Source of the DNA: an uncultured Pseudomonadales bacterium
GTDB lineage: Bacteria; Patescibacteriota; Microgenomatia; UBA1400; MFAQ01
Assembly: GCA_964509695.1 (NCBI GenBank)
Contig: CAZDXN010000002.1
Location: 6,621 to 70,620, forward strand
DNA: 64,000 bases
Direction: 5' to 3'
The first letter of the stretch is position 1, and each line of letters starts with the position of its first letter. The position numbers and the translations under genes were made by a program. Of the stretch, positions 38,890-61,031 are shown one piece after another. The notes below the pieces were generated by a model, which did no database searches, was not told the origin of the DNA, and saw only the letters and a program-made list of their open reading frames with translations.

Positions 38890-39079
38890 AAGTACTCCTT
38901 TCTTCAATCTCGGCATTATTCCGTTTATTCTGTGAACGCTTCTGCTTTGGTCTGATAAGAACTTCCATCATGTTGAGAAAATGATTTGCCAATTCGGTTG
39001 CCTCCTCATCGTTGAGAGTGATTTCATATTTGTCTTTATATAGCTTCTTAAACTTATCTAAATACTCTTTACTAATCAT
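38870..39079 (-). CDS. small hypothetical protein upstream of, and overlapping, the recombinase start
   Basis: MISKEYLDKFKKLYKDKYEITLNDEEATELANHF... Operon position suggests an excision/directionality-type accessory role, which is inference only. Confidence 0.35.
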   Translation of the reverse strand: MISKEYLDKFKKLYKDKYEITLNDEEATELANHFLNMMEVLIRPKQKRSQNKRNNAEIEERSTYASDRI

Positions 39080-43845: not shown

Positions 43846-44190
43846 ATGGAAAAGTTTATCCTACATCAAAAAACCTATGATTTTATTCTTTATCTGTACC
43901 CCATCATCAACCGTTTGCCTAAAAATCATCGTCTTATACTCGGAAGGAAGCTTGAAGAATTAGCACTCGATCTTCTCATGTCTCTCATGAAAGCCAATAA
44001 AGCGCGGGAAGAAAAGAGAAAGCGGTTACAACTTGAAACATCGGACACGCTGGATTATCTGCGTATCGTGCTTCGGCTGGCGAAAGACACCCGTCTTATT
44101 AGTGTCAAACAGTATGCACATAGTGCCGAAAAGCTCAACGAAATCGGGCGCATGCTTTCCAGTTGGATGGGGTCAATCCGCAGTGTATGA
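43846..44190 (+). CDS. avd: DGR accessory variability determinant (Avd; four-helix-bundle / 23S rRNA-IVS protein family)
   Basis: 114 aa. N-terminus HQKTYDFILYLYPIINRLPKNHRLILGRKLEELALDLL. Basic helical protein immediately 5' of the TR. Confidence 0.85.
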   Translation: MEKFILHQKTYDFILYLYPIINRLPKNHRLILGRKLEELALDLLMSLMKANKAREEKRKRLQLETSDTLDYLRIVLRLAKDTRLISVKQYAHSAEKLNEIGRMLSSWMGSIRSV

Positions 44191-44221: not shown

Positions 44222-44341
44222 ACGCCTTTCTCCGCGGCGGCAATTGAAATAACACGTCCAACGCTGGGGCGTTTACAGCGAATCTGAACAACACGCCGGG
44301 GAATACGAACAACAACATCGGGTTTCGTTGCGCCAGCGATC
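44222..44341 (+). repeat. DGR template repeat (TR)
   Basis: 120 nt colinear with 49370-49489. It has 32 adenines and 11 in-phase AAY codons. Confidence 0.93.
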
Positions 44342-44540: not shown

Positions 44541-44577
44541 GACAAACCCTGCGACAAAAGCGGGGTTTGTCGTTTTT
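44541..44577 (+). terminator. terminator-like hairpin plus U-tract ending 1 nt before the RT start codon (TR-RT spacer)
   Basis: gacaaaccctgc-gacaaaa-gcggggtttgtc (12 bp with one G:U), then gttttt, then ATG at 44578. Confidence 0.5.
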
Positions 44578-45669
44578 ATGTATACACACCTCTATGACCT
44601 GGAAAATTTATTGTATGCGTATGCGCAGGCACAACAGGATAATCGCTATAAGCGAAAGATTTGTGCGTTCACTTTTTCACTTGAGGAAAATCTCTTTGAT
44701 TTGAGGTGGGAATTGAGCCGGGGCCTCTATGTGCCGCGTCCGTATACCTACTTCATGCTTCATGATCCAAAGACGCGCAGCATCGCCGCGCCGAATTTTC
44801 GTGATAGAGTTGTCCAACATGCATTGGTCAATGTCATTCAACCTCTTTTTGAACGTCAATTTATTTACGACTCCTATGCTTGCCGCACGAACAAAGGCAC
44901 ACATTTTGCCGCCAAGCGACTGAAGAAGTTTCTCATGGCGGCTCGGTCTTTCCATGGCAAAGATACCCCAATCTATGTGCTTCAGTGTGACATTCGCAAA
45001 TTCTTCCAGAGTGTTTCTTGGGATATTCTTCTTAAGATTATCGGCAAAACTATTTCCTGCCAGAAAACAGTGTCTCTGATTAAGACGATCGTTACTACCC
45101 ACCACAATGTTGTACCTGCCCAAACACCTCTTTGTTCGCAATTATCACTTTTTTCTTCCAGTGAAAACCCTGCGGAAACAAGTATTTCAGTTGCGCAGAG
45201 AACAGGTTTACCGATCGGCAATCTGACGAGCCAGCTCTTTGCGAATGTTTACCTCAATGCGTTGGATCACTTTATTAAAGACCGCCTGCGTATCCGCTGG
45301 TACGGACGATACATGGACGACTTCTTTGTGTTGCACCACGACCGAGCGTATCTAAAACAGCTTTGCGACACGATTAATACTTTTCTTCAGCAGAAACTCC
45401 ATCTTTGCCTGCATCCAAAGAAATTAACGATTAAAAATGTTTCTAGCGGCGTGCCGTTTGTCGGATACCGGATATTTTACGACCATGTGCTGGTTCGGGG
45501 AAATACGCTTCGACGCATTGAGCGTAGCTATCGCTCTAAAGTAAAACAGGCCAAGCACGGCCGGTTGACCAGTCAAAAACTCGCTCAAACCAAGGCTTCC
45601 ATTATCGGTCATTTCAAGCACGCAAACAGCTACGGTTTGACCAAAAAGTTATTTGAGAAAAATGAATAG
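44578..45669 (+). CDS. DGR reverse transcriptase
   Basis: RT motifs include RYMDDFFVL (YxDD) and LPIGNLTSQLFANVYL, the [LIV]GxxxSQ signature that replaces the QG motif in DGR RTs. No maturase/X or endonuclease domain. Confidence 0.9.
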   Translation: MYTHLYDLENLLYAYAQAQQDNRYKRKICAFTFSLEENLFDLRWELSRGLYVPRPYTYFMLHDPKTRSIAAPNFRDRVVQHALVNVIQPLFERQFIYDSYACRTNKGTHFAAKRLKKFLMAARSFHGKDTPIYVLQCDIRKFFQSVSWDILLKIIGKTISCQKTVSLIKTIVTTHHNVVPAQTPLCSQLSLFSSSENPAETSISVAQRTGLPIGNLTSQLFANVYLNALDHFIKDRLRIRWYGRYMDDFFVLHHDRAYLKQLCDTINTFLQQKLHLCLHPKKLTIKNVSSGVPFVGYRIFYDHVLVRGNTLRRIERSYRSKVKQAKHGRLTSQKLAQTKASIIGHFKHANSYGLTKKLFEKNE

Positions 45670-45743: not shown

Positions 45744-46958
45744 ATGGCCGTCACAATATCAAAAAATCCGTTCCGAACGCCGTTTTTATCCCACTTTATT
45801 TTTACTCCTGATCTATTACCGTTCTCTGATGAGGAAATTGTAAAGCGCGATCAAGATCTTGCCGAATTTGAACAGATTTTTTTGAACCCGGATATAGAAA
45901 AAAACCTGATCAGTAAAAATGAACTTTTGGCCTCCTATGCGATTTCCAAAGCTGAACATTCGACACTTACCTTGGCGGAAGCACAAAACGTCTATACCGT
46001 AGTGCTTGCCGCACAGGAGTATGTCTTTATTCGGGAAAAGTTAAACGCCGGCAAACGGCTCACGCAAAAAGATCACGACAAGTTGGAGTTTTTTAATATT
46101 GCGAAAACGTTTCGAGAGTTTAATCAAGTTCCGTTTTCCCTCGATATGCTATCCCCACATTTTATCCAAAACCTCCATGCCTCCCTTACGCAAGGTATGG
46201 ACGTGTTTAAAACATATCTTAGTGAGTTCACGGTGTACAAATCCGGTAACTGGCGGGACAATGATCGCATACGTGTGGGCGAGTATGCTCCCGCGCCGCA
46301 TATACAAATTGCCAGTGGTGTGGATGAACTTATCGCCTGGGTGAAAACGCATCCATCCCCCGTAGGAATTGCTATCTTTCATACTGCATTCTACGCATTG
46401 CACCCGTTTCACAACGGTAACAAGCGGATTTGTCGTATCCTGGAGCATTTGTTATTTCGGAGCATTGGCCTGAATCGGAAAAACCTCTACAGTACCTCTT
46501 ACTATTACCACAAAGAAAAACTCAGATATTATAAATATCTTCTTTACAGCCTCGAGCGCAACAACCTCAACCACTTTGTCAACTTCATTCAGGAATCATT
46601 AATGTTATCCATGCTTTCGGTGATCAAAATGAGCCTGGAATCAAAACGTCACGAGTATCTTACCAAACATACAACAGGTGATTTGATCTTACGGAATATC
46701 TTAAAGCCTTTGGTGAAACGTGAGGAACTACAGTTTAAACACCTTCTCAAACCTGTCGGTCATAAAATGGCACGACAAACTTTTGTGTCCAACTTAAAGC
46801 GCGCAGGGCAAGAAAACATTATCGTCAAAAGAGAGTCCGGGCGTTCTACCTATTACCGCCTGGCATTGATAACCCAGGAGGAAAACGTCGTTGCCCAGTG
46901 GCTGACATTTATCAAAGAACGGTTATCCTTTGTTCCCGATGATTTTCTTCTCGCATAA
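45744..46958 (+). CDS. Fic/DOC-family protein with a non-canonical active-site motif
   Basis: HPFHNGNKRICR versus the canonical HPFx[D/E]GNGRxxR. Confidence 0.7.
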   Translation: MAVTISKNPFRTPFLSHFIFTPDLLPFSDEEIVKRDQDLAEFEQIFLNPDIEKNLISKNELLASYAISKAEHSTLTLAEAQNVYTVVLAAQEYVFIREKLNAGKRLTQKDHDKLEFFNIAKTFREFNQVPFSLDMLSPHFIQNLHASLTQGMDVFKTYLSEFTVYKSGNWRDNDRIRVGEYAPAPHIQIASGVDELIAWVKTHPSPVGIAIFHTAFYALHPFHNGNKRICRILEHLLFRSIGLNRKNLYSTSYYYHKEKLRYYKYLLYSLERNNLNHFVNFIQESLMLSMLSVIKMSLESKRHEYLTKHTTGDLILRNILKPLVKREELQFKHLLKPVGHKMARQTFVSNLKRAGQENIIVKRESGRSTYYRLALITQEENVVAQWLTFIKERLSFVPDDFLLA

Positions 46959-47055
46959 CCTGTCGGTAGATTAGTGGCTTGCACTTGCGCTTGCATACCC
47001 CAGACATAAATACTACTATGATAATGTACGGGATTGGACATCAATCCTGGTTTTT

Positions 47056-47403
47056 GTGTACCGTCGGACACATATGAAAAACGAAGCCAATATACCCACT
47101 AAAATCGCCATTTTTCAAGGCAAAAAAGTGCGCAAGATTATTTTCAATAATGAGTGGTGGTTTGTAATAGTCGATGTGGTTTCCGCTCTTACCGATTCCG
47201 CACAACCCGATGGTTATGTTAAAGATATGCGACGTCGAGATAATGAACTTTCCAAAGGGTGGGGGCAAATTGCCACCCCCCTTTCTGTAGAAACTGCTGG
47301 TGGAAAACAAAAACTGAATTGTGCCAATACAGAAGGATTATTCAGGGAATTCAATTTAAACCCGTCGAATTCGATGGATTTAGGAATGAGGTTTACACTA
47401 TGA
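47056..47403 (+). CDS. Bro-N / antirepressor-like DNA-binding domain protein, possibly 3'-truncated
   Basis: FQGKKVRKIIFNNEWWFVIVDVVSALT...ANTEGLFR. The sequence becomes unrelated at the point where homologues normally continue. Confidence 0.5.
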   Translation: MYRRTHMKNEANIPTKIAIFQGKKVRKIIFNNEWWFVIVDVVSALTDSAQPDGYVKDMRRRDNELSKGWGQIATPLSVETAGGKQKLNCANTEGLFREFNLNPSNSMDLGMRFTL

Positions 47404-47413
47404 AAAAACTACC

Positions 47414-48247
47414 ATGACCACTCAAAAAACACACAAAATTTCGGTAAAAGGGATAGAAATCGTAATCTTTGTTAATGAAGAGTCTGACTATATTTCTCTG
47501 ACTGATATCGCTAAATTTAAAGACAAAGAACGAACAGAATACGTGATCCAAAATTGGATGAGAAATCGTGATACTATCGAATTTTTGGGAATTTGGGAAC
47601 ATTTGAACAATCCAAGTTTTAAACACATCGAATTCGATGTGTTTAAAAATAATGCAGGATCAAATAGTTTTTCCCTTACACCAAAACGCTGGATAAAATC
47701 AGTTAATGCTATTGGGTTAATTAATAAATCTGGTCGATACGGTGGCGGTACCTTTGCTCACAAGGATATTGCATTTGAGTTCGCGTCCTGGATCTCAGCA
47801 GAATTCAAACTCTACATCATTAAAGAATTCCAACGCCTGAAAAATGAAGAACAAAAAAAGATTGAATCTGGTTGGGATGTCAAACGAATTCTCACCAAGA
47901 TCAACTACAAAATCCACACTGATGCCATTAAAGAACATTTGATCCCTAAAAACATCTCTAGCAATAGGGCTAACATTGTCTACGCTAACGAAGCAGATGT
48001 ATTAAATGTAGCCTTGTTTGGCAAAACTGCTAAAGAATGGCGAGACGAAAACACCAGTAAAGATGGGAATATCCGTGATTTTGCAGATGTCACTCAACTG
48101 GTCGTGCTGGCTAACCTGGAGGGGATGAACGCCGAGCTTATCCGCCAAGGCATGATGCAACCTGACCGACTGGTACAACTTAATCAGATTGCTATTGTCC
48201 AGATGCGGTCATTGCTTGATAATAGCAGTGTAAAGAAATTACTATGA
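47414..48247 (+). CDS. KilA-N domain protein
   Basis: YISLTDIAKFK...NWMRNRDTIEFLGIWEHLNNPSFK...GRYGGGTFAHKDIAFEFASWISAEFKLYIIKEFQRLK. Confidence 0.8.
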   Translation: MTTQKTHKISVKGIEIVIFVNEESDYISLTDIAKFKDKERTEYVIQNWMRNRDTIEFLGIWEHLNNPSFKHIEFDVFKNNAGSNSFSLTPKRWIKSVNAIGLINKSGRYGGGTFAHKDIAFEFASWISAEFKLYIIKEFQRLKNEEQKKIESGWDVKRILTKINYKIHTDAIKEHLIPKNISSNRANIVYANEADVLNVALFGKTAKEWRDENTSKDGNIRDFADVTQLVVLANLEGMNAELIRQGMMQPDRLVQLNQIAIVQMRSLLDNSSVKKLL

Positions 48248-49395
48248 CAAAAATTATTGAGCGATTGAAGCACTACCTCTTTACCCCCCGTTTCCACTTT
48301 TCGCGGTTTCAATTTAATCTGGTCGCCCTTCTTTTTATCACCGTCGGTTTCATTACCGGCACGTATCTCACGCTCAAGGGCATCACGAGCATCTTTGCGC
48401 TCAATGATACAAATAAAACCTGGACGTTTAATACCGCCAATGCCGGTAGCTACACGTATGATTCAACGCTGGTCACGGTGGATGATACAGGAGCGCATTC
48501 GGTGGCCAACAAACTCACCAATCCCGCCTTTGCGTCGGATAATTCCTCCTGGAGTACGGGAGCGGTGCCAGCCTCTGGCTGGGTGGAAGTGCCGGGCAAC
48601 AGCACGTACTCCACAACAAACTTTTTGGCCATGAAATATGAAGCCAAATGTGCGGCGACCTCTGACGCCACAACAGGCTTGACCAGTCCTGACTCGGGGT
48701 ATCACACGTACTCGGATAGCACCACCACCTGTACGTCAGGCAACAGCAAACAAGTCGTCTCGGTGGCCTCCGGCTACCCGATTGCCAACGTTTCACAAAC
48801 CAACGCCATCACCCGCTGTAGTACGGTATCCTTAAACGGCAACGCTGCGCACCTTATTACCAACGCCGAGTGGATGACGGTAGCTCGAAACGCCGAAGCC
48901 CAGGCGGGTAACTGGAGTTTGGGAAGTGTGGGAAGCGGGTATCTTTTCGCCGGACACAATGACAACGCCCCGGCCCTGGCGCTTGCTGCCTCAACCACCG
49001 ACACCGGCAACAATGCCTGCGCCTACACCGATACGGCAGGAACAACGGAAGCGCCAAGTAGCTGTCCCACCAATACCGGCAATAACACGTCCGGGACTGC
49101 CGGCAATCAAAAGCGCGTTTTAACGCTCTCAAACGGCGCATACATTTGGGATATCCCCGGCAACGTCTGGGAATGGACCAATGATACGATTCAAGGCAAA
49201 GACCAGCCGACCAATGCCTCTCCGGGCTTTGCCTGGCGGGAGTTTACCGCGCTGACCACCTACGGCACGCTCACCTACGACAAAGTCCGTCCTTTGGCGA
49301 GTACGTACGACGCCACGTACGGCGTAGGGCGCATGTATTCCGACGGAACTTCCTCTAATACCACCGTCTACGCCTTTCTCCGCGGCGGCGCTTGA
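48244..49395 (+). CDS. DGR target protein, N-terminal part as read with the standard code: TM anchor plus FGE-sulfatase/C-type-lectin-fold domain, ending at a TGA inside the VR
   Basis: TM FNLVALLFITVGFITGTYLTL. GNVWEWTND (FGE/CLec signature). Ends ...YAFLRGGA-TGA. Confidence 0.8.
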   Translation: MTKIIERLKHYLFTPRFHFSRFQFNLVALLFITVGFITGTYLTLKGITSIFALNDTNKTWTFNTANAGSYTYDSTLVTVDDTGAHSVANKLTNPAFASDNSSWSTGAVPASGWVEVPGNSTYSTTNFLAMKYEAKCAATSDATTGLTSPDSGYHTYSDSTTTCTSGNSKQVVSVASGYPIANVSQTNAITRCSTVSLNGNAAHLITNAEWMTVARNAEAQAGNWSLGSVGSGYLFAGHNDNAPALALAASTTDTGNNACAYTDTAGTTEAPSSCPTNTGNNTSGTAGNQKRVLTLSNGAYIWDIPGNVWEWTNDTIQGKDQPTNASPGFAWREFTALTTYGTLTYDKVRPLASTYDATYGVGRMYSDGTSSNTTVYAFLRGGA

Positions 49396-49489
49396 AATGA
49401 CGCGTCCGTCGCTGGGGCGTTTACAGCGAGTCTGGGCGGCACGCCGGGGGATACGGGCGGCTACATCGGGTTTCGTTGCGCCAGTGATC
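49370..49489 (+). repeat. DGR variable repeat (VR)
   Basis: Gap-free match to the TR at offset 5148. 17 substitutions at TR adenines and 1 at a C near the 3' end. Encodes ...GYIGFRCASD. Confidence 0.93.
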
Positions 49490-52400
49490 CCGTAGCCATC
49501 TCTCAATCTTTCTCCTCTTCTTCCGGCCGCGCCGGCGGCGGAAATACCGTTACTATAGGCTCTATTTCAGACGGGAAAATCTACCAAAGTGTGAACGTCG
49601 GCGATACCTCCACGTATGATTTCTCGGCCTATGTCTATGACGCCACCACCGGCAACGTCGGCGGGACGGTGACATCCTCTATCGCCCAGCTCTACTACAA
49701 CGGCGCAACCATCGCAACCACATACACCGATGCGGGTTCGGGCTGGTGGAAACTGACGGGGACGTTGACCGGCGCCAACGCCTCCCGCGAGTACGGCGTC
49801 TTGGTCAAAGCCGGGAAAACCGTGAAGGTTGATGATTTTACGTTATCCAAACAAGGTACCTACAGCGTCTATACAACAAGCGCCTATTCCAACGCGCAGG
49901 TCAATACTTGGGATACGTTTTGCGAAGGGACACTGGTTGGTTCCACCTGCACCACGGACTCGACCGCCACCGGTAACGCGGCAATCAAGTACCAGCTTTG
50001 TACCGATGACGGCTCCACCTGCCAATCCGGTTCGTCTTGGAAATACTGGACAGGGTCTGCGTGGGCTGCGGCGACTGACACCACAACGACAGTCAACAGT
50101 GCTGCCCAACTGACACAATCTGCGATGCAGGCGCTCCCGATTACCTCCCAAAAAATTTCGGTGAAAGCGATCTTGACGTTTGGCGGGAGTGATACGCCAC
50201 TCCTCCCCCACGTTTCGATAGGACTGACCACGGATACCACGGCTCCAACGACCAATGCTTCAGCAATCGCCATGACCCGCTCAAGCGGCGGAACGAGTAT
50301 GTCCAGTAACGACTGGAGCAAAGGCTCATCACCATACTTTTCCTGGACGGCTGGGGCGGATAACGCGGGCGGATCTGGACTCAAGGGGTACTGTTTATAC
50401 TTGGGAACTGATTCTGCGGGAGCACCATCGACAAGTAAGGGACTTTTGGGCACTTCGCCCGTTTCCACAACCGGTACTACCTGCCAGTTTATCGTCTCGG
50501 CAACCAGCGTCGATCTGGCTACCAGCGGCTACATCGGGACGGCACTCACCACCTCCAGTTCACCGTACTATTTTAATATCAAAGCTGTGGATAACTCTGG
50601 AAATATTTTTTCCGGCACGAGTGTCCAGTTTCAATTCCGGTTTGACAACACCGTGCCGACAAATACATCCTACATCTCCTGTGCGTCCGGCTCGTTTTCC
50701 AACGTGGCGGATATGAATTTTAGCTGGCCTATTTCCGGAAGCGCTGCCTCTTCCGATGCCAATGCCGGACTTTTAGGCTGGCAGTACCAGATCAACTCGA
50801 CGTCGGGAACGTGGCTCGGGACAACCACGGAGGCACTCCTTGGAGTGACCAACTATATTCCCTCTTCGGCCACGTCCCGCACCCTGTCGCAATCCCAGGA
50901 TGGCAGCTCCATCGTCACCGGAACCAACGTGGTGTATTTCCGCACGGTGGACGCGGCGGGCAACCCATCGGCCGACTCTACCATCCGCACCTGTAACCTC
51001 TCGTATGGCGGAGCTGCTCCGTCATTTGGCGGGACGGATACCGTGACGGTGACACCCACCACGTCGACCGCAAACTCATACGCGCTTTCCTGGCCGGCAG
51101 CTACCGCCACATCCGGTCAAACGGTAGCCCATTACTACTACATGGTCAATACTTCGCCTCCAAGCACGCTTGCCACCCTTCAGGGAAACGCGTCCACCTA
51201 TATCGACAACGGAACCACAAGGACTGTCTCTGCTGCGGCTCTTCCGAGCGTGAACAAGGGAAGCAATACGGTGTATGTGGTGGCGATTGATAATGCAAGT
51301 ACGCCCAATTACTCGCCCAGTAACGTCATTTCCGGCACGTTTACCTTGAGTTCAACCGATCCGGACAACGTTGGGAGTCTGGTGGCTTCCGACAGCAGTA
51401 TCAAATCGTCATCCCAGTGGAACGTCACGCTGACCTGGGTTGCACCCACATATCAAGGAGCAGGAAACCTAACGTATCTGGTCAAACGGTCAACAGATAA
51501 CAGCACCTTTACGCAAGTCGGAACCTCAACAGGTTTGTCCTATGTGGACAACGCTCCCTCATCAGCGCTGTACTACTACAAAGTGTATACCAAGGACGGC
51601 GCCAGTGCTCAAAGTTCGGGAACAAACGCCGTATCGATAACGCCGACCGGAAAATGGACGAGCGCACCGAGCCTTTCCACCGGTCCGGATGCCGGCAGTC
51701 TCACGACCAAAAAAGCGACGATCACCTGGACAACGTCCCGGTCTGCCGATTCAAAAATCCAGTACGGAACAACCTCGGGAAGCTACGGATCGGTCGAGCC
51801 GAGTAATTCATCGCAAGTCTCTTCCCATTCGATTCAGTTGACCGGTCTCAATCCGGGCACCACCTATTATTACAAAGCCAAATGGACTGACGAAGACGGC
51901 AACACGGGTACATCTGGTGAGAAAAGTTTTTCGACAACCTCGGCCCCAACCGTGAAAGACGTTTTGGCCAAAAGCATCGGACTGACGACGACCACGATTC
52001 AATACACCAGTCTCAACGCCAGCAAGGTGAAGATTTATTACGGCACCACCACATCCTTTGGCGGATCAAAAGAGGTGTCCACCTCGACCTCGGAAACAAC
52101 CTATACCACAGAACTCACGGGGTTATCTGACGGCACGAAGTATTACTACAAGATCAATACTTTTGATTCTGATAGCACGGAGTACGAAGGAACAACGCTC
52201 GACTTTACCACCCTGCCCCGGCCAAAAATTACCAATGTCCGTATTCAGCAAGTCGCCAACACCGCGCAGTCCACCATTCTCATTACCTGGACCACCAACA
52301 CCGACGTGTCTTCCATCGTCACCTACTACCCCGAAGGCCAGACCGGGTACGCCAGGGATGAAGTCAACGTGGCGCTCACCCGCGGTGACCACCGGATGAT

Positions 52401-52905
52401 TGTGCGGGGTCTTCTGCCGCAAACGGATTACCTGCTCGTAGTGAAGGGTCGGGATAAGATTGGCAACGAAGCGGTGAGCGACTCCCAACGGCTGACCACC
52501 GCTACCGATACCCGACCGCCACAGATTTCAGACCTGCATGTGGAGGGAAGTAACATTCCGGCAGTCACTCAGACTGCCCAAGAACAAACCGCCCAGCTCA
52601 TCGTGTCCTGGAATACCGACGAGCCTGGTAGCTCTCAAGTAGAGTTTGGCGAAGGGACGGGAACGACGTATGCCCAAAAAACCCAGGAGGACAGCAATCT
52701 GACGTTCAATCACATCGTCATTATCTCCAATCTTACGCCATCAAAAGTGTATCATGTGCGATCCGTCTCCAAAGACAAGGCTGGAAATATCGGCAACTCC
52801 ATTGACACGGTCACGATTACCCCCAAAGCGACGGAAAATGCGCTTAACCTTGTCATCACGAATTTACAGGGGGCCTTTGGCTTTTTAGGAGGCTTGAAAA
52901 AATAA
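49396..52905 (+). CDS. in-frame continuation of the DGR target: rest of VR, jelly-roll/CBM-like region, Ser/Thr-rich region, four Fn3/PAP-N-like repeats. The ORF track starts it at GTG 49591.
   Basis: Same frame as 48244-49395 with no stop in 49396-49590. Four repeats of the type ITWTT..S...V.YG......H...L.GL.P.T.Y.Y......D..GN span about 51700-52840. Confidence 0.75.
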   Translation, partial: NDASVAGAFTASLGGTPGDTGGYIGFRCASDPVAISQSFSSSSGRAGGGNTVTIGSISDGKIYQSVNVGDTSTYDFSAYVYDATTGNVGGTVTSSIAQLYYNGATIATTYTDAGSGWWKLTGTLTGANASREYGVLVKAGKTVKVDDFTLSKQGTYSVYTTSAYSNAQVNTWDTFCEGTLVGSTCTTDSTATGNAAIKYQLCTDDGSTCQSGSSWKYWTGSAWAAATDTTTTVNSAAQLTQSAMQALPITSQKISVKAILTFGGSDTPLLPHVSIGLTTDTTAPTTNASAIAMTRSSGGTSMSSNDWSKGSSPYFSWTAGADNAGGSGLKGYCLYLGTDSAGAPSTSKGLLGTSPVSTTGTTCQFIVSATSVDLATSGYIGTALTTSSSPYYFNIKAVDNSGNIFSGTSVQFQFRFDNTVPTNTSYISCASGSFSNVADMNFSWPISGSAASSDANAGLLGWQYQINSTSGTWLGTTTEALLGVTNYIPSSATSRTLSQSQDGSSIVTGTNVVYFRTVDAAGNPSADSTIRTCNLSYGGAAPSFGGTDTVTVTPTTSTANSYALSWPAATATSGQTVAHYYYMVNTSPPSTLATLQGNASTYIDNGTTRTVSAAALPSVNKGSNTVYVVAIDNASTPNYSPSNVISGTFTLSSTDPDNVGSLVASDSSIKSSSQWNVTLTWVAPTYQGAGNLTYLVKRSTDNSTFTQVGTSTGLSYVDNAPSSALYYYKVYTKDGASAQSSGTNAVSITPTGKWTSAPSLSTGPDAGSLTTKKATITWTTSRSADSKIQYGTTSGSYGSVEPSNSSQVSSHSIQLTGLNPGTTYYYKAKWTDEDGNTGTSGEKSFSTTSAPTVKDVLAKSIGLTTTTIQYTSLNASKVKIYYGTTTSFGGSKEVSTSTSETTYTTELTGLSDGTKYYYKINTFDSDSTEYEGTTLDFTTLPRPKITNVRIQQVANTAQSTILITWTTNTDVSSIVTYYPEGQTGYARDEVNVALTRGDHRMIVRGLLPQTDYLLVVKGRDKIGNEAVSDSQRLTTATDTRPPQISDLHVEGSNIPAVTQTAQEQTAQLIVSWNTDEPGSSQVEFGEGTGTTYAQKTQEDSNLTFNHIVIISNLTPSKVYHVRSVSKDKAGNIGNSIDTVTITPKATENALNLVITNLQGAFGFLGGLKK

Positions 52906-52909
52906 CATT

Positions 52910-53671
52910 ATGACCAACGCCACGATTCATATTGCTCATGTTTCCAAATCATTCCACGTCGGAGTGCAGGATGTGCCGGTACTGAGAGATATCTCCTTTG
53001 AGGTATATCCCAATGATTTCTGCGTCATTTTTGGCCCATCGGGGTGCGGCAAATCCACGCTCCTGCATACGATTTTGGGGCTGGAAGCGCCAAGTGCGGG
53101 AACCTGCACGTTTCTTTCTCAAAATTTGTATGAGGGCATGGATGAGGACGAGCGGAGCGATTTTCGCAAAAACCACGTGGGCATGGTTTATCAACAGCCC
53201 AACTGGATTAAGTCGCTCACTGTTTTAGAAAATGTGGCCTTTCCATTGATACTGATGGGGAAACCAAAGGGTGAAAGTTTGGAAAAGGCAAACGCCATGC
53301 TCGAGGTCATGGGGATGCGTGACTGGTCGGGGTACGCTCCGACGGAACTCTCGAGCGGTCAGCAACAAAAAGTGGCTCTGGTTCGGGCGCTTGTGACCAA
53401 TCCCGAAGTCATTATTGCCGACGAACCAACCGGAAACCTGGATTTTGAATCGGGTCAGGAACTCATGCAGTTGCTCGTCACTCTCAACAAGGAACAGGCA
53501 AAAACGGTTCTCATGGTCACCCATGACTTGGAATACTTAAAATTCGCCAAAACGGTGGTCAAGATGTTTGACGGCGCCATCGCCGGAGAATACGCGGAAA
53601 AAGACAAAGAAACGTTACTGAAAGAGATTAAAGGGAAACGAGGGAACGGAAATATAATATGCCAACGCTGA
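52910..53671 (+). CDS. ABC transporter ATP-binding protein (MacB/LolD/FtsE-like)
   Basis: Walker A GPSGCGKST, signature LSSGQQQ, Walker B IIADEPTGNLD. Confidence 0.9.
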   Translation: MTNATIHIAHVSKSFHVGVQDVPVLRDISFEVYPNDFCVIFGPSGCGKSTLLHTILGLEAPSAGTCTFLSQNLYEGMDEDERSDFRKNHVGMVYQQPNWIKSLTVLENVAFPLILMGKPKGESLEKANAMLEVMGMRDWSGYAPTELSSGQQQKVALVRALVTNPEVIIADEPTGNLDFESGQELMQLLVTLNKEQAKTVLMVTHDLEYLKFAKTVVKMFDGAIAGEYAEKDKETLLKEIKGKRGNGNIICQR

Positions 53672-55698
53672 AAGAAAAAACCACCATATCTTTCATCAAC
53701 CTTAAAACCGACTTCTGGAAGCTGGCGACATTTGTGCTGCTTCTCATCGTGTATCTTCTGGCCAAGATGGCAACGTCTCTCGTCTTCATGTTGGAAACAA
53801 AAACCCACGGACTCGGACAAAAACTCACCAAAAACTCATTCTTTGCAAAAGTCTTGCTCAAATCAAAGAACGCGTATGACCGCATCACCGTTATTTTGGA
53901 TCATCAACAACCCGGATCCATTTCCAGAATCGAACTCATCGAACTTTCGTTGCGGAACATGAAATCAAAAAAAACACGGACGTATATCACCATCGGCGGC
54001 ATGACGATTGGTATTGGCACGATTGTTTTTCTCGTTTCCCTGGGCTATGGGGTGGAACAGCTCGTCGTGACCCGCGTGGCCAGACTCGAGGAGATGAAAC
54101 AAGCGGACGTTTCTCCTCAAGCCGGAGGAAAAGTAAAGATTACCGATAAGACGCTCTCCAATTTTAAAGAAATTCCATCCGTAGATATGGCGCTTCCCTT
54201 GATCGCGGTCGTGGGACGGGTCAGTTATTTAAACTCGGTCACGGACATGGCGGTGTATGGCGTCACGACCGATTATCTTAAGCAATCCGCCATTAAACCG
54301 GTGGACGGAAAAGTGTTTGAGAGTAACGACCTTTCTTTTGACGTGTCTCACCTCAAAGGGCAGGTAGCCGGCGTGTCAACGGACAGAAAAACCGGGACGA
54401 TAGGTGAAAAAATCCAGGACGTCGATTTTACCATTGATCCGGGAACGTGGATTCGCGTCCGCGAGAATCCGTCAACGACTGGCAAAATTATTGGGTATAC
54501 CAAACGCGTGGAAGGGTCTCCGCAAGGAGAAGAAATCTGGGGAGGGAAATATGAATCAGATACCGGCGTGGGGACATTTGGAGAAACGGAAGACGGAAAA
54601 ACGATCGGGAAATGGATACAATCTGACGTGCTGCTCTGGAAAAGCGAAAAATGCGATCCGGCCACTCAAGGTGACTGCGAGGGTGGAAAGTATTTGGTGG
54701 CCCGAGGTGAGGACAACAAGCAAATTCAAAAAACAGGATATATTGCCGAAATAGGGATCAAACTCTCCGGTGTCAACTTGAGTGAGCCGAAAGTTTTGGG
54801 AGTAACTACGGACGCGTCGGGTAGCGCACAGGTAAATTGGGTCGAGATTGCGTCGGAAGCGGGCATTATGAAACCGCCGGATACAAAAACCGTTGATCTT
54901 TCCACGTCTGCCAAACGCGAGGCGGTGGTGAATCGGGCCATGCTCTCGGTGTTGGGCATTAAAGAGGCTGAAGCCCTTGGTAAAAAGTTTATGACCTCGT
55001 TTGTGGTGGTTGGCGATCTGTTAAGCGACTCCACGGCAAATATCGAATCGTCTCAAGCGGAATACACGATTGTCGGCGTGATCCCCGAAGAAAAAACACC
55101 ATTTTTTTACGTGCCATTTCTTGATCTCCGGAGTTTAGGCATTGCGAATTATTCCCAAGCCAAAGTGGTGGTGAAAGATCAAAATGAACTTGTCAAAACC
55201 AGACGGCAAATTGAGTCCATGGGGTATATGACCCGCTCGGTAGCTGATACCGTAGCGCAAATCAATTCGTTGTTTGCAACGGCAAGAACCGTGCTCATGT
55301 TGCTGGGAATGGTGGCGCTTTCCGTTGCGGCACTGGGGATGTTTAACACGCTCACCGTTTCTCTCCTGGAGCGTACACGGGAAGTTGGCCTGATGAAAGC
55401 GATGGGCATGAAATCATCAGAGGTGCAGGAATTGTTTTTGACAGAATCGATGATTATGGGATTTTTCGGCGGAATTTTGGGAATCATGCTTGGCGGGGTC
55501 TTAGGAATACTCGTCAGCATCATGCTATCGTTCTTTGCCGTTATCAAGGGTGTGGGGTTTGTGAACATTTCCTATATCCCTCTCCCGTTTATTCTCGTGA
55601 TTATCTTCTTATCTCTATTGGTGGGATTGGTGACCGGTATTTATCCGGCACGAAGAGCGACAAAAATATCAGCATTAAATGCGTTGCGATACGAATAA
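53659..55698 (+). CDS. MacB-like ABC permease (large extracytoplasmic domain plus C-terminal FtsX domain)
   Basis: 679 aa. TM1, then an extracytoplasmic region of about 430 aa, then three C-terminal TMs with REVGLMKAMGM. Overlaps the ATPase gene by 13 nt. Confidence 0.8.
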   Translation: MPTLKEKTTISFINLKTDFWKLATFVLLLIVYLLAKMATSLVFMLETKTHGLGQKLTKNSFFAKVLLKSKNAYDRITVILDHQQPGSISRIELIELSLRNMKSKKTRTYITIGGMTIGIGTIVFLVSLGYGVEQLVVTRVARLEEMKQADVSPQAGGKVKITDKTLSNFKEIPSVDMALPLIAVVGRVSYLNSVTDMAVYGVTTDYLKQSAIKPVDGKVFESNDLSFDVSHLKGQVAGVSTDRKTGTIGEKIQDVDFTIDPGTWIRVRENPSTTGKIIGYTKRVEGSPQGEEIWGGKYESDTGVGTFGETEDGKTIGKWIQSDVLLWKSEKCDPATQGDCEGGKYLVARGEDNKQIQKTGYIAEIGIKLSGVNLSEPKVLGVTTDASGSAQVNWVEIASEAGIMKPPDTKTVDLSTSAKREAVVNRAMLSVLGIKEAEALGKKFMTSFVVVGDLLSDSTANIESSQAEYTIVGVIPEEKTPFFYVPFLDLRSLGIANYSQAKVVVKDQNELVKTRRQIESMGYMTRSVADTVAQINSLFATARTVLMLLGMVALSVAALGMFNTLTVSLLERTREVGLMKAMGMKSSEVQELFLTESMIMGFFGGILGIMLGGVLGILVSIMLSFFAVIKGVGFVNISYIPLPFILVIIFLSLLVGLVTGIYPARRATKISALNALRYE

Positions 55699-55780
55699 TC
55701 TGGTTCTCAACAAACGAATTTGCATTCCTTGATCTTGTCTGATATACTAACGATCAGTTCTTTGGGAAACTCAAGAACTC

Positions 55781-55807
55781 TGCCACCATCATAGGGTGGC
55801 ATTTTTG
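55781..55807 (+). terminator. rho-independent terminator after the ABC operon
   Basis: tgccacc-atcatag-ggtggca followed by tttttgt. Confidence 0.65.
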
Positions 55808-55833
55808 TACATGACCATTCAAGGAGGTGAATT

Positions 55834-56166
55834 ATGAAAAAGATTATTGTCCTAAACGCACTCATTATCATTTCACTGCTTCTGGCAGTTCCCGTGTATG
55901 CGGCATCAGCCGATGTGACCAAGATTGAAACATTTATCAAAAGCGCCATTCAGGTGTTAGTCACGCTTGCCGGTCTTATTTCCGCCGGGTTCTTTGTCTG
56001 GGGCGGGGTCGGATACATGACGAGTTCCGGCAACCCGGAAATGCTTGATCGTTCCAAAAAAACCATTTGGTATTCAGCGATTGGTTTAGCGGTTGTACTT
56101 GGAGCATTTGTTCTCACAAACATTGTCTCTGATTTAGCAACCGGAGCATTCGGGGTAACGCCGTAA
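55834..56166 (+). CDS. VirB2/TrbC-like conjugative pilin
   Basis: Signal peptide ...VPVYAASA, then two hydrophobic helices around GYMTSSGNPEMLDRSKKTI. Strong SD aaggagg 7 nt upstream. Confidence 0.65.
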   Translation: MKKIIVLNALIIISLLLAVPVYAASADVTKIETFIKSAIQVLVTLAGLISAGFFVWGGVGYMTSSGNPEMLDRSKKTIWYSAIGLAVVLGAFVLTNIVSDLATGAFGVTP

Positions 56167-56195
56167 CCCCCTCAATCTTTGGCCTATGAATCACT

Positions 56196-57488
56196 ATGAA
56201 ACGAATCGTATTGGCACTCAGCACCATACTGATACTCCTTCTTGCACCCTCAGTGGCATATGCCGCAACGAATGCACCCTCGGAGGTAACGGCGTTTACG
56301 AGTGACGCCCTTTCCATCATTACGATGATTTCGGGCGCAGCAGCGGTCTTTTTTTTAATTCGCGGCGGATACGTCTACATCACCTCAACGGGTCGGCCTG
56401 ATGCACTTGAAGATGCAAAGAAAACGATCCGCAACGCTTTACTCGGACTCGTACTCGTCATTGCAGCCAACGGGATTGTGTCCCTACTCCAAGGGGCGCT
56501 AGTAGGCAATGGGGACGCTGGCACGATAACGAATCTCCCATTAACCCAAATTGAAAGCGTCCCGCCAAACGAGGGATTAACCCAAGTTCTTATCGATGCC
56601 GTCAATGGCTTTATCCAAAACATCGTTGAAAGCTCAACCAAGCCTATTGTAGATGGCATCATGAGCTTTCTATCAACCACGCCGACACTTTTAACCAATG
56701 CAACTATCGTCAAGTTCTGGCTGATTATCCTAGGAATTACCGACACCTTGTTTGTCCTGGTGATAGCGCTTCTGGGACTGCAGTTTATGAGTGCTTCTAC
56801 CTTTGGTTTTGAAGAAATTGAGTTTAAACATCTCCTGCCCAGGATTGGACTTGCTTTTCTGGCTGCGAATGTTTCACTGTTTCTTGCCGACTATGCCATC
56901 CAAGCCAGTAACGCCTTGGTATCTGGGGTTCTCTCGGCCACCGGCGGTCTGAGCCAAGCCTGGATAAGTAATGCAATAACTGTATCAAATCTCACCAACG
57001 GTACGGCGCCGTTTATTATCCTGATTTTTCTGCTTATTTTTCTGATTATTTCCATTGTTTTACTCCTTATGTATATCAGCCGGTTGATTGTCATTTCACT
57101 CGGGGCAGTGCTTTCACCCTTGGTATTTCTGTTATGGGCAATGCCCAAAACTTCTGACTTTGCGGAAATGGCCATCAGGGGCTATTTTGTGTCCGTGTTT
57201 ACGATTTTTGTACATGTGGTCACCATTCAACTGGCTGCAGCTTTTCTTACCTTACCAGAACAGACCGGTAATTCGCTCATTTCCATTGCGGTGGCAATAG
57301 GCCTTCTGTTAACGCTTCTGAAAATCCCCACCTTTTTGATGCAACTGATTCTTTTTTCGTCCCGCGTCGGATCGGTAAAGCAAATGGGCAACCACATTAT
57401 CAATGTCATGAGCGCAGACAGCGCCGGTAACACCGTCAGCCACGGAATGAAATCAGTTAAAACCCCCAGAAAGTCGGTTGACCTATGA
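56196..57488 (+). CDS. fusion of a VirB2-like pilin module to a VirB6/TrbL-like polytopic channel protein
   Basis: The N-terminal roughly 100 aa are paralogous to the 55834 product (YITSTGRPDALEDAKKTI vs YMTSSGNPEMLDRSKKTI). At least 6 further TM helices follow. Confidence 0.6.
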   Translation: MKRIVLALSTILILLLAPSVAYAATNAPSEVTAFTSDALSIITMISGAAAVFFLIRGGYVYITSTGRPDALEDAKKTIRNALLGLVLVIAANGIVSLLQGALVGNGDAGTITNLPLTQIESVPPNEGLTQVLIDAVNGFIQNIVESSTKPIVDGIMSFLSTTPTLLTNATIVKFWLIILGITDTLFVLVIALLGLQFMSASTFGFEEIEFKHLLPRIGLAFLAANVSLFLADYAIQASNALVSGVLSATGGLSQAWISNAITVSNLTNGTAPFIILIFLLIFLIISIVLLLMYISRLIVISLGAVLSPLVFLLWAMPKTSDFAEMAIRGYFVSVFTIFVHVVTIQLAAAFLTLPEQTGNSLISIAVAIGLLLTLLKIPTFLMQLILFSSRVGSVKQMGNHIINVMSADSAGNTVSHGMKSVKTPRKSVDL

Positions 57489-57967
57489 GAACCACAATTA
57501 TTCCGGCACAAATTACCACGGTCGAGGACAAAATTGCTGGATCGCTCAACATGACGCAAATTTTGATCATGATCGTGCCGATTTTGTGGACGGCCCTAGT
57601 CTATGCCGTATTTTATCCAAGCACCAAGATTGTTCCGTATAAATTTGTACTGGTATTTGTTGTCACTGCAATTTGTTTTATTTTGGTGCTAAGAATCAAA
57701 GACAAAATTATCGCCGAATGGCTGGGGGTACTGACCAAGTACCGGATGCGCCCAAAATATTATTTGTTTAATAAAAACACGTTAGTAAACCGTACTCTGG
57801 ACATGCCCGACATTCCATTTGAAATTAATCTTGCCAAAAAACATACAGTTAAGCCTGTTCCGGCTAAAACTAACGAGATCAAGCTGTCAGATCTGGTAAG
57901 ACTTGCGCATCTGGTTGATTCCGGGAGAATCGCTTTGCGATATCAATTTAAAAAGAGACTGGTATGA
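57485..57967 (+). CDS. PrgI / VirB3-like small membrane protein
   Basis: IPAQITTVEDKIAGSLNMTQILIMIVPILWTALVYAVFY and a second TM. Located just upstream of the VirB4-like gene. Confidence 0.55.
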   Translation: MRTTIIPAQITTVEDKIAGSLNMTQILIMIVPILWTALVYAVFYPSTKIVPYKFVLVFVVTAICFILVLRIKDKIIAEWLGVLTKYRMRPKYYLFNKNTLVNRTLDMPDIPFEINLAKKHTVKPVPAKTNEIKLSDLVRLAHLVDSGRIALRYQFKKRLV

Positions 57968-58584
57968 AAAATATATTTAAAAGATTATCCAAAGTAAGCA
58001 GCCGCCAACAAATTCAGATCAAAGAAGTGGTGGATAATATCCTGGTACTTCCAGGTAACGAATACCGGCAAATTCTGGAAACCTCGTCGGTGAACTTTGA
58101 GCTCAAAAGCGAAGACGAACAGGACGTAATGATTGATAGCTTCCAAAACTTTCTCAATGCGCTCCCTTGTCAAATTCAAATCTTAGTCCGGGTAAGAGAA
58201 ATCGATATTGATAAATACGTTGAGGATATTTCTAAAACTAAGGAAAAAGAAACCGTTACGGCGTATAAAAGACAGATTGACGGCTACTGCGCCTTTGTTA
58301 AAAAGTTAGTCTCCGGTAACAAGATTCTTTCCCGGCGCTTTTACATTGTTGTGCCATACAAACATACTGACCGCCACCAAGATTGGAAACTGATTAAAGA
58401 ACATTTAGCCCTAGAAAAAGACATCATTATCAAAGGCTTGGAACGGATGCAAATGAAGGCCAGATCGTTATCAGGACTGGAAATTCTTAACCTTTTTTAC
58501 ACCTTCTACAACAGCGAAAGCATGAAAACCCAAGCGCTGACCAAAGAAACCGTAGAAGCATTTCTGAAAAACAACTATGTTTAA
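57964..58584 (+). CDS. T4SS-associated hypothetical protein, translationally coupled to the VirB4-like gene (8-nt overlap)
   Basis: 206 aa, no NTPase motif. Call rests on gene order only. Confidence 0.4.
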   Translation: MKNIFKRLSKVSSRQQIQIKEVVDNILVLPGNEYRQILETSSVNFELKSEDEQDVMIDSFQNFLNALPCQIQILVRVREIDIDKYVEDISKTKEKETVTAYKRQIDGYCAFVKKLVSGNKILSRRFYIVVPYKHTDRHQDWKLIKEHLALEKDIIIKGLERMQMKARSLSGLEILNLFYTFYNSESMKTQALTKETVEAFLKNNYV

Positions 58585-60376
58585 CATCAAGAAAAAAATT
58601 AACAATCTAAAACCAGTTAAATCCTGGAAAAGACGGCAAAAGAAAAAGGCGCTCAGAAACCAAGCTGTCAAAATTGCCTTTGGCGAGCAAGACCAGTTGG
58701 ATCTCATCTCGTATGCCGGACTTAAAGAAGAATCAAGCTATTTGCAGATTAACGACCGTTATGTGCGAACCCTGTTTGTATCCGGTTATCCATACATTGC
58801 CTCAACCGGCTGGCTGTCGATGCTCATTAACTTTAACCACGATATTGATATCAGCTACCACATTGAACAGGTTGATCCCATGATTGCGCTTCCTAAACTC
58901 AATAGAAAAATTACTGAGCTCGAATCCACTAAACGTACCATGCTTAAAGAAGGACGGGTCATTGGCAGCGAAATTACCGATCCTCTTGAATCGGCCATGG
59001 AACTCAAAGACAAAATCCAGCGGGGTATGGAAAAGCTCTTTCAAATCTCTATCTACATGACGATTACCGCTGAAAATCTCAACGAATTAAACAAAACCAC
59101 CAAACTGTTGGAAACGGTGATGCAAACCAGGCTATTTTATATAAAACCAGCCACTTTCCAACAAATAGAAGCCTTGCAATCAATTCTCCCCAGATCAGAA
59201 AATAAATTAGCCCAGAAGCGAAACTTGGACAGTTCCAGCACTGCCTTAACTTTCCCATTTGTCTCTTCGGAGCTCGTCCAAGAATCCGGTATTCTGTACG
59301 GCATTAACAAATCAAATAATTCACTGGTTATTGTAGATCGCTATAGTTTAAATAACGCCAACTCGATTATTTTTGCTCAATCTGGATCCGGTAAAAGTTA
59401 TACCGCCAAGGTCGAGATATTGCGACACCTCATGCAAGGCACGAAAGTGATCATTATTGATCCTGAACGCGAGTATAAACAGTTGGCAGCCAGTGTGAAC
59501 GGCACATATATTAAACTTTCCAGCACTTCCAAAGAAAAAATAAATCCCTTCGCGTATTCAAGGCGAGCAGTCACCGACGAAAATAACCTATCCGAGCAAA
59601 TTCAGGATCTCACCGAGCTAATATCTCTCATGGTAGGCTCGCTCACTTCAGAAGAAAGGGGTGCGGTGGATAAAGCCTTACTTCAAACATACAAAAACTT
59701 GGGTCTGACTCCGAGAAAAAATGCTAAAACACCGGAACAACTTGCGTATCCTCTCCTCAAGGACTTTTATAAAACTTTGAAGGCCATGAAGCAGAAAGAC
59801 CTCTGCAACCGGCTCGAACGATTTGTAAAGGGATCGCTCTCTACCGTTTTTGACTCACAAACGAACATTAAGCTGGATAACCGGCTGATTGTTTTTGATA
59901 TTAAGGATTTGAATGAGTCACTGCGGTCAATCATGATGATGGTTGTTGCAAATTTCGTTAATAACGAAGTTAAGCAAAATCCCCAAAAGCGAATGCTCGT
60001 TATTGATGAAGGATGGATGCTTCTTCAAGAACCGGAAAGCGCCAGATTTATCTCGGGTCTAGTCAGACGGGCCAGAAAATATTATTTGGGAGTAACGATC
60101 ATTACTCAGCAAGCTAATGACTTTTTAAATCAAGAATATGGTAAAGCCATCGCTAGCCAATCATCATTAAGAATTCTGATGCGCCAGGACACGACCACAA
60201 TCAAAAAAGTAGCCGATGAGTTCCATCTTTCCGGCTACGAACAACATTACTTACTAACGTGTGATCGGGGTGAGGCGCTTCTGATTGCTGATCAAAATCA
60301 TGTCGCGGTAAAGGTGGTAGCTTCGGATGAAGAACACCCACTTCTGACAACTGATCCCCGGGAAGTGTATATCTAG
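58577..60376 (+). CDS. VirB4/TraE/TrsE-like conjugation ATPase
   Basis: N domain RYVRTLFVSGYPYIASTGWL, Walker A FAQSGSGKSY, Walker B MLVIDEGW, and ITQQANDF. Confidence 0.88.
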   Translation: MFNIKKKINNLKPVKSWKRRQKKKALRNQAVKIAFGEQDQLDLISYAGLKEESSYLQINDRYVRTLFVSGYPYIASTGWLSMLINFNHDIDISYHIEQVDPMIALPKLNRKITELESTKRTMLKEGRVIGSEITDPLESAMELKDKIQRGMEKLFQISIYMTITAENLNELNKTTKLLETVMQTRLFYIKPATFQQIEALQSILPRSENKLAQKRNLDSSSTALTFPFVSSELVQESGILYGINKSNNSLVIVDRYSLNNANSIIFAQSGSGKSYTAKVEILRHLMQGTKVIIIDPEREYKQLAASVNGTYIKLSSTSKEKINPFAYSRRAVTDENNLSEQIQDLTELISLMVGSLTSEERGAVDKALLQTYKNLGLTPRKNAKTPEQLAYPLLKDFYKTLKAMKQKDLCNRLERFVKGSLSTVFDSQTNIKLDNRLIVFDIKDLNESLRSIMMMVVANFVNNEVKQNPQKRMLVIDEGWMLLQEPESARFISGLVRRARKYYLGVTIITQQANDFLNQEYGKAIASQSSLRILMRQDTTTIKKVADEFHLSGYEQHYLLTCDRGEALLIADQNHVAVKVVASDEEHPLLTTDPREVYI

Positions 60377-60378
60377 CC

Positions 60379-60984: not shown

Positions 60985-61031
60985 AGAATTGTGGTGTCAA
61001 TTTATATATTTAATCCGTCAAGTAAAAACAG

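Follow-up and report, generated by a model that had tools for sequence, protein, structure and literature searches.

How does a gene fare whose own diversifying system writes a stop codon into it, and is such a stop a defect or a part of the gene's working? The question is raised by the target gene of a diversity-generating retroelement (DGR) in a 64,000-nt stretch of DNA (positions 6,621 to 70,620 of contig CAZDXN010000002.1, assembly GCA_964509695.1; hereafter the window), situated between the DGR and the conjugation genes of a mobile element. DGRs have been described as avoiding stop codons, and their variable repeats (VRs) as C-terminal for the sake of non-coding cis signals; this locus breaks both rules and offers a natural case. 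The best overall explanation, which is probably correct, is that a DGR on an integrative conjugative element (ICE) diversifies a surface protein with an internal VR, that this protein is accompanied by a pair of ATP-binding cassette (ABC) proteins, and that a stop codon in the template toggles it off and on.

Two alleles and their shared template

The DGR is complete, with its accessory protein (bAvd), template repeat (TR) and reverse transcriptase (RT) all upstream of the target. The RT has the motifs of its class, including an SQ motif of the defined form (I/V/L)GxxxSQ (PMC3521204), and the TR and VR, 120 nt each, differ at 18 positions, 17 of which are adenines in the TR. Two departures from the usual pattern are evident: the TR does not avoid stop-capable adenines but contains an in-frame TGA at 44245-44247, and the VR is not C-terminal, its last residue being 416 of 1,553. 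VRs are located at the end of the open reading frame (ORF) in 87% of cases, which makes an internal VR a minority arrangement (PMC11661182), as had been recognized in a preliminary description of this DNA made from the sequence alone.

ORFs 48244-49395 and 49591-52905 share one frame, and the sole interruption between them is a TGA at 49393-49395. The lectin-fold signature runs past this stop (RGGA-stop-ND...GFRCASDP). When the joined protein was used as query, 190 relatives were retrieved. Lengths of 1,500-1,630 aa, with 98-100% of the query aligned, prevail among the best 120, and full-length homologs number more than 100. Because the signature continues beyond the stop and more than 100 homologs are continuous, 48244-52905 is, as judged by sequence comparison, a single gene, and the one-protein reading in the preliminary description is upheld. 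The TGA occupies the Trp position of a conserved RGG-x-W motif, at which 17 of 20 aligned relatives have Trp, and in the window allele it cuts the protein at residue 383. The TR has TGA at the same codon, with adenines on both sides that are mutated in the VR. With TGA in the TR at this conserved Trp codon, each retrohoming event therefore writes TGN there.

An uninterrupted allele exists in a second assembly, GCA_016183355.1, in which contig JACPEU010000006.1 encodes the RT and ABC proteins of the window letter for letter. Over 20,762 nt (window 42910-63671) the two assemblies differ by 17 substitutions, all of them within 49379-49463, and 16 of the 17 fall at TR adenines. The TR of the second assembly is identical, including its TGA, but the VR has TGG at this codon, and gene calling gives a single protein of 1,553 aa. 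Since the TR is the same, the VRs have TGA and TGG, respectively, and the sequences are identical elsewhere, the DGR is active and the stop is both templated and reversible; by the evidence of these two sequences, a single template has yielded both an on and an off allele in nature. An off allele due to a stop or an indel in the VR could likewise be reopened by the next homing event.

The seventeenth difference, at 49379, is T (as in the TR) in one allele and G in the other, in the Phe-Leu-Arg codons near the 5' edge of the repeat, and would fit a variable 5' end of the conversion tract. The same non-adenine T/G difference between TR (44231) and VR is found at this codon in four related loci (L012, L037, L080 and L089), with Leu (CTC/CTT) in the TR and Arg (CGC/CGT) in the VR; its recurrence may reflect either a 5' limit of conversion that varies or a hot spot. 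The two VR alleles of this element (window 49390-49460 compared with L141) share nine identical substitutions relative to the TR, including a rare A-to-C change at 49391. This number is larger than would be expected of two fully independent events and suggests selection on the residues or patchy conversion.

A third assembly (L142, SRR12113420) has a contig that is 100% identical to window 49464-63671 and starts just after the last mutable position of the VR; the break at 49464 may be an effect of VR heterogeneity on the assembler. Outside the VR, the sole divergence between the two assemblies consists of substitutions and gaps at window 35428-35492 relative to L138, beside a tRNA-Val gene and at the start of the other contig, and is probably a contig-end artefact.

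The target protein, its in-frame hairpin and its ABC partner

Sequence and structural models together describe the target as a membrane-anchored protein, with a predicted N-terminal helix followed by a VR-containing lectin-fold head, a series of about ten beta-sandwich/Fn3 domains and, at the C-terminus, a short helix; it would be a surface adhesin of diversified ligand specificity. Much of this architecture had been laid out in the preliminary description. Its N-terminal transmembrane anchor corresponds to the only strongly hydrophobic segment of the protein (residues 24-46), and its lectin-type head, with a VR ending at about residue 415 and some 1,140 residues following, corresponds to the Pfam domain FGE-sulfatase (PF03781, residues 164-413, 25.7 bits, cutoff 23.3), within which the VR lies and beyond which 1,137 residues follow the VR. 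The head also matches the profile of pFGE 1y4j (E=0.0098). The Fn3/purple-acid-phosphatase-N repeats proposed for about 51700-52840 are present as three Pur_ac_phosph_N stretches and an fn3 domain (1337-1412) within residues 1154-1528 (about nt 51700-52830).

AlphaFold2 modelled the part beyond the stop (1,169 residues, codons 385-1553) with a mean predicted local distance difference test score (pLDDT) of 85.4. Residues 419-1525 form about ten beta-sandwich domains in this model, and pLDDT is below 50 in the first 32 residues and in the C-terminal tail, a short helix; the Foldseek matches of the model are strings of Fn3/Ig domains. The Ser/Thr-rich region of the preliminary description is thus modelled as beta-sandwich domains and is no linker. 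The segment previously likened to a jelly roll or carbohydrate-binding module is indeed a confident beta-sandwich (residues 419-536) in the model, but it belongs to no carbohydrate-binding family by sequence: residues 415-544 have no PDB or Pfam match. The head was modelled through the N-terminal 646 residues of an 88%-identical homolog (P0001), with a pLDDT of 54.8, and this model is usable only for the beta-sandwich at 430-540. No C-terminal sorting signal was found among NCBIfam models, nor an LPXTG motif, and the tail is only weakly hydrophobic.

C-terminal VRs have been explained by a need for non-coding, intergenic cis elements (Roux et al., PMC8144416), and homing requires a GC-rich hairpin located 4-34 bp downstream of the VR (Guo et al., PMC3240598). 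Because the VR of the window is internal, its candidate homing hairpin (49523-49535, 33 nt past the end of the VR) lies inside the reading frame, where it encodes S-G-R-A-G; a cis element for homing would thus have been written into coding sequence. The offset of this hairpin, counted from the Gly codon of GFRC, is fixed in the family (55-57 nt). Of 43 distinct relatives, 32 have a stem of 5 bp or more, where resampling of synonymous codons predicts 7.4, and 21 have a stem of 6 bp or more, where it predicts 1.9, although these statistics are inflated by the relatedness of the sequences. Compensatory changes have converted GGCCGC/GCGGCC to GGTCGC/GCGACC in L012, L078 and L089, at the expense of an Ala-to-Thr replacement, and to CTGGCC/GGCCAG in L018. 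In an alignment of 24 long-form sequences, 86.9% of cells pair, compared with 26-67% in slid registers. The in-frame hairpin is a probable homing element within the coding sequence.

The prototype DGRs (Bordetella phage BPP-1 Mtd, Treponema TvpA and Legionella LdtA) resemble this locus in their bAvd-TR-RT cassette, in adenine-specific TR-to-VR substitutions, in a VR that ends a lectin-fold domain with RGGxW...GFRC, and in a GC-rich hairpin tens of bases after the VR. They differ in that the VR here is internal and the ORF encloses both the hairpin and the GC-rich VR 3' end, which is similar to an initiation of mutagenic homing element; in that the hairpin loop here has 3 nt, theirs being a 4-nt GRNA; and in that the TR here has a nonsense-capable codon, which theirs avoid.

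The target is separated by 4 nt from the gene of an ABC ATPase, which overlaps that of a permease by 13 nt. The preliminary description had seen a MacB-type pair directly after the target and type IV secretion system (T4SS) genes after that, and Pfam agrees, with ABC_tran, with MacB_PCD and FtsX, and then with pilin, TrbL_4, PrgI and VirB4-like genes from 55834 onward. Among related loci with enough downstream DNA, the ABC ATPase follows the target in 92 of 97 and the FtsX permease in 91 of 97. MacB, LolCDE and FtsEX (type VII systems of mechanotransmission) likewise consist of an ATPase and a permease with MacB_PCD and FtsX domains, and the nearest NCBIfam models are LolD, FtsE, MacB and LolC/E. 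At the domain level the two proteins belong to ABC_tran, MacB_PCD and FtsX, but their scores are far below the equivalog cutoffs, none of which is reached (LolD, 195 against 308; FtsE, 173 against 265; MacB, 77 against 966; LolC/E, 73 against 362). The permease, with 679 aa, has about 290 extra extracytoplasmic residues, and the constant genomic partner of the pair is a giant beta-sandwich protein. No MacB, LolCDE or FtsEX system is known to have such a partner.

The C-terminal 900 or so residues of the target, the ATPase and the permease travel together. This trio is found across Patescibacteria, either with the present head and a DGR or with other heads and without a DGR. The relatives with other heads are proteins of about 1,060 aa with a short N-terminal domain or of about 3,200 aa, in which the stalk and the ABC pair are kept, the lectin-fold head is absent, and the flanks contain no closely related DGR (judged by an RT match with 40% identity or more); a distant RT/Avd is present in a few, L044 among them. 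The alternative heads match no Pfam family. The ORFs of about 3,200 aa (L026, L027, L034, L035 and L043) have a very long N-terminal region with repeated motifs resembling S-x-D-x-G-x-x-W, and the forms of about 1,060 aa (L044, L097, L124, L129 and L137) have a short domain with repeated GY-x-FSEDLGW motifs. The head would therefore be the exchangeable part, and the stalk and tail would have to stay C-terminal to work with the ABC machine, by anchoring, extraction or force transmission, as in LolCDE or FtsEX. The internal position of the VR may be explained by this need for the stalk and tail to stay C-terminal. The locus thus defines a widespread module of Patescibacteria, in which the head is interchangeable and an Fn3 stalk is combined with a MacB-type ABC machine. 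This module is a candidate cell-contact apparatus of episymbionts and a candidate for the adhesin that has been reported missing from T4SS loci.

Template stops, conjugation and competing readings

The family was surveyed in 44 TR/VR pairs, with 35 distinct TRs. Nonsense-capable TR codons occur in eight further loci, at two Leu codons of the VR, with TAA in seven and TAG in one. TAA stands at the Leu of F-L-RGG in the TRs of L002, L008, L015, L030, L057, L058 and L074, and TAG is found in L017. The matching VR codon is Cys in L002 and Leu in L008, L030, L057 and L017, and in the three other loci it is a stop (TAG in L015, TGA in L058 and L074), each separated from the template by a single A-to-G change. 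With the same TR, L015 has a stop and L057 a Leu in the VR. The TAA-bearing TRs are spread over four separate RT clades. In addition, about 14 of the best 120 protein clusters are only 1,100-1,175 aa long and start inside or just after their own VRs, and several of these short forms have stops or 1-2-nt indels in the DNA of the VR. Indels of 1-2 nt at or beside template adenine runs, which cause frameshifts, were observed in the VRs of L009, L015, L074 and L084, and suggest that the RT also makes indel errors.

The stop of the window may be a recent accident, a reading to which slightly less than an even chance is given: a G-to-A change in the untranslated TR would have been copied to the VR, the target would be on its way to becoming a pseudogene, and the variation between on and off would be an unselected side effect. 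Such an origin agrees with the uniqueness of the TGA-bearing TR among the 35 distinct TRs (the other 34 all have TGG at this codon), with its absence from other metagenome and viral contigs, with published analyses in which selection keeps nonsense-capable adenines out of TRs, and with the stops or indels that break 6 of 44 VRs and about 14 of the 120 protein clusters in the family. It agrees less well with the otherwise intact state of the RT, the Avd and 4.6 kb of target ORF, with the on allele made from the same TR in the second assembly, so that function is still recovered, and with the TAA codons of four RT clades, which suggest tolerance or benefit instead of rapid purging. Because the Leu codon of F-L-RGG is near the 5' edge of the repeat and perhaps transferred only sometimes, a reasonable alternative explanation of the codons found there is neutral drift in the untranslated TR.

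Alternatively, the DGR may double as a phase-variation switch, in which nonsense-capable template codons are kept and retrohoming not only redraws the binding site but also sets the gene on or off, roughly as a coin toss, with the off cells escaping recognition and remaining reopenable. Classical phase variation by slipped-strand repeats or invertible promoters is similar in its stochastic and reversible on/off control of a surface protein, but here the switch would be an adenine in a retroelement template and would be coupled to a change of ligand specificity. Selection for this role is rather doubtful. Retrohoming as a combined switch of specificity and expression is a new idea that can be tested with existing read sets; no report of TR-templated stops, or of linkage of a DGR target with ABC and T4SS genes, was found in the literature, the coverage of which was incomplete and leaves absence unproven.

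Several observations weigh against the overall explanation, that of a templated stop toggling the surface protein of an ICE. The TGA-bearing TR has no second instance among the distinct TRs, which suits a recent accident as well as design, and a search for its exact sequence in metagenome and viral contigs of the Joint Genome Institute gave 0 matches. The assemblies are consensus sequences that represent one allele each and not population frequencies. The lectin-fold head is poorly modelled (pLDDT 54.8, even in a close homolog), and its Pfam score is barely over the cutoff. The stem of the window hairpin has only 5 bp (P=0.15 when taken alone), 11 of 43 relatives have no hairpin, and relatedness inflates the counts for the others.

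It had also been proposed that the target is a mating-pair adhesin, by which the conjugative element would recognize recipients in a manner analogous to shufflon switching of PilV. The co-inheritance on which this idea depends is real but partial. Among loci with at least 8 kb of downstream DNA (n=72), a T4SS cluster is present downstream of the trio in 13, including L044, L129 and L137, which have other heads and no DGR, and no such cluster is present there in 59; among the loci with a lectin head and a DGR, T4SS genes are downstream in 8 of 29. The constant partner of the target is therefore the ABC pair, not the T4SS. Upstream genes for a type IV coupling protein, Replic_Relax and DUF2958 are found in 18 of 29 DGR-bearing loci compared with 3 of 34 others, and no PrgB-like adhesin turned up in a survey of T4SS in Patescibacteria (PMC12102498), which leaves the role vacant. 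In the same survey, most of the T4SS had no relaxase and were thought to serve other roles. Here, moreover, 136 nt with a terminator-like hairpin part the trio from the pilin gene. The only experimental precedent found, an ICE-borne DGR of Bacteroides, diversifies an adhesin that was reported to be dispensable for transfer (bioRxiv 10.1101/2024.11.15.621889). A function in mating is neither refuted nor favoured, and is judged rather unlikely. Patescibacteria are episymbionts, and for a protein of an episymbiont, attachment to host cells may be at least as likely as a mating role.

The systems closest to this proposal share single aspects with the locus. The DGRs of Bacteroides whose targets are tip adhesins of type V pili are likewise carried by ICEs and vary a surface adhesin, but in a different phylum and envelope, and their target is a pilin tip, whereas here it is an Fn3 stalk protein with an ABC partner. 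The R64 shufflon with PilV is similar only in the idea of a mobile element that varies a surface adhesin, the mechanism here being retrohoming and not inversion; no Rci or PilV was found in the Pfam results for 37-64 kb, and no sfx-type repeat families in 43-53 kb. The aggregation substances of PrgB type in Gram-positive bacteria, like the target, are large surface proteins encoded beside a T4SS of the mating-pair formation (MPF) class MPF-FATA, but no similarity of sequence or domains to them was found, the target has no LPXTG signal, and it is paired with an ABC transporter.

That the TGA is decoded as Trp (genetic code 4) or read through, so that the full protein is made, is highly improbable. 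The TGA stands exactly at the conserved Trp codon of RGG-x-W, and the preliminary description had read it as Trp. However, TGA terminates nine of 31 curated genes, among them the gene directly upstream of the target, with which it forms an ATGA overlap; the 31 genes contain 126 in-frame TGG codons and this one TGA; the TR carries TGA as well, and the sister allele has TGG. ARAGORN detected no suppressor tRNA and no UCA anticodon in the window. The genetic code is standard, and the TGA is a true stop templated by the TR. Stop-codon usage and the tRNA scan rule out TGA as a sense codon under codes 4 and 25 alike.

A pair of independent genes, namely a DGR target of 383 aa and an Fn3 protein of its own with a GTG start at 49591, has next to no probability. 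This division follows the split models of gene callers here and in about 14 relatives, but the lectin-fold motif is located past the stop together with the 3' half of the VR, the truncated relatives begin at differing points inside or after their own disrupted VRs, and two separate genes are ruled out by the continuous homologs and by the intact gene of the second assembly. No database record was found of the exact downstream ORF of 1,104 aa.

The mobile element and its gene map

The DGR and its target belong to an ICE that occupies the window from 37.2 to 64 kb, beside a tRNA-Leu gene in the chromosome of a tiny, uncultivated member of the Patescibacteria (Table 1). Window 1-37100 contains housekeeping genes (gyrA/B, PilB/C, RecG, PBP, PheT and trigger factor, identified by Pfam). 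The gene order and coordinates in the preliminary description were borne out by ORF and Pfam positions.

Table 1. Features of the element in the window, with coordinates, strand and basis of identification.
Feature	Coordinates	Strand	Evidence
tRNA-Leu(TAG); left boundary and probable integration site of the element	37182..37264	+	ARAGORN
Large serine recombinase, element integrase	37141..38916	-	Pfam Resolvase + Recombinase + Zn_ribbon_recom
Type IV coupling protein	39560..42151	+	Pfam TrwB_AAD_bind, TraG-D_C, DUF87
Replication-relaxation family protein, candidate relaxase	42254..43060	+	Pfam Replic_Relax, 38 bits
DGR accessory protein bAvd	43846..44190	+	Pfam bAvd, 83.6 bits, cutoff 40
TR, with TGA at 44245-44247 in the VR frame	44222..44341	+	Direct repeat with VR
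12-bp hairpin and T run between TR and RT, 7 nt upstream of the RT start	44541..44571	+	Terminator-like scan
DGR RT, with YMDD and IGNLTSQ motifs	44578..45669	+	Pfam RVT_1, 78.7 bits; motifs from translation
Fic, Bro-N and KilA-N genes between RT and target	45744..48247	+	Pfam; coordinates
DGR target gene, 1,553 codons, with TGA at 49393-49395	48244..52905	+	ORFs, Pfam, homologs, model; intact in second assembly
VR, residues 376-416; mutable positions 49390-49463	49370..49489	+	Repeat comparison
TGA at the conserved Trp of RGG-x-W, copied from TR; TGG in second assembly	49393..49395	+	
GC-rich hairpin CCGGC-CGC-GCCGG in the ORF, candidate target-recognition hairpin/cruciform	49523..49535		
ABC ATPase, MacB/LolD/FtsE type	52910..53671	+	Pfam ABC_tran; NCBIfam best LolD, DevA, FtsE, all below cutoff
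MacB-type permease, MacB_PCD + FtsX, 679 aa	53659..55698	+	Pfam; NCBIfam
Terminator-like hairpin and T run between permease and pilin genes	55781..55801	+	Consensus scan only
T4SS genes	55834..60984	+	Pfam

The element has the integrase, coupling protein, VirB4, VirB6-like protein and cell-wall hydrolase of an ICE with an MPF-FATA-like T4SS. Its 5' part contains a DUF2958 gene after those of the recombinase, coupling protein and Replic_Relax protein (Pfam), the last of which is the only evidence of a relaxase by Pfam. The T4SS block encodes a VirB2-like pilin (T4SS_pilin), a fusion of pilin and TrbL/VirB6 (TrbL_4), a PrgI-like protein, a 206-aa protein, a VirB4-like ATPase and an M23 peptidase. 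The 3' end of the serine recombinase ORF passes through the complement of the tRNA-Leu gene (37141-37264). No attachment-site repeat of the tRNA end was found within the window, and the right end of the element is beyond position 64000. The assignment to Patescibacteria is based on the labels of related assemblies: all 54 related genome loci are from metagenome-assembled genomes, most of which are labelled as Patescibacteria lineages, mainly of the Microgenomates group, and the other or generic phylum labels of the remainder are taken to be automatic misassignments.

The G+C content of the target (0.52-0.57) exceeds that of its surroundings (0.36-0.47), as does the G+C content at third codon positions (0.62-0.65 in the target, 0.57 in the ABC gene, 0.55 in the permease gene and 0.30-0.50 in the backbone of the element). 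Ser, Thr, Gly and Ala make up 42-53% of the residues of the target. The G+C excess noted in the preliminary description is thus real, but the mosaic origin deduced from it is unsupported: the target is richer in G+C than its flanks in 23 of 23 related loci, at genome G+C contents from 0.31 to 0.54, and because it is seen in all of these whatever the genome, the excess is a family trait and no sign of recent mosaic origin. The long antisense ORFs over the target, which had been cited in favour of the same origin, lend it no support either; the three largest that were tested match no Pfam family, and they may be by-products of GC-rich coding sequence.

Several minor features complete the map. 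The 12-bp hairpin in the spacer between TR and RT may have a role in the DGR RNA. The stop codon of the KilA-N gene and the start codon of the target share the ATGA overlap mentioned above, and in close relatives the interval between RT and target contains KilA-N alone (L015) or is empty (L056). The cargo after the T4SS genes includes a Thoeris-like defence set, ThsB(TIR)-ThsA(Macro)-ThsB(TIR), at window 61698-63612, adjoined by an S24/LexA-like repressor gene at 61070-61696.

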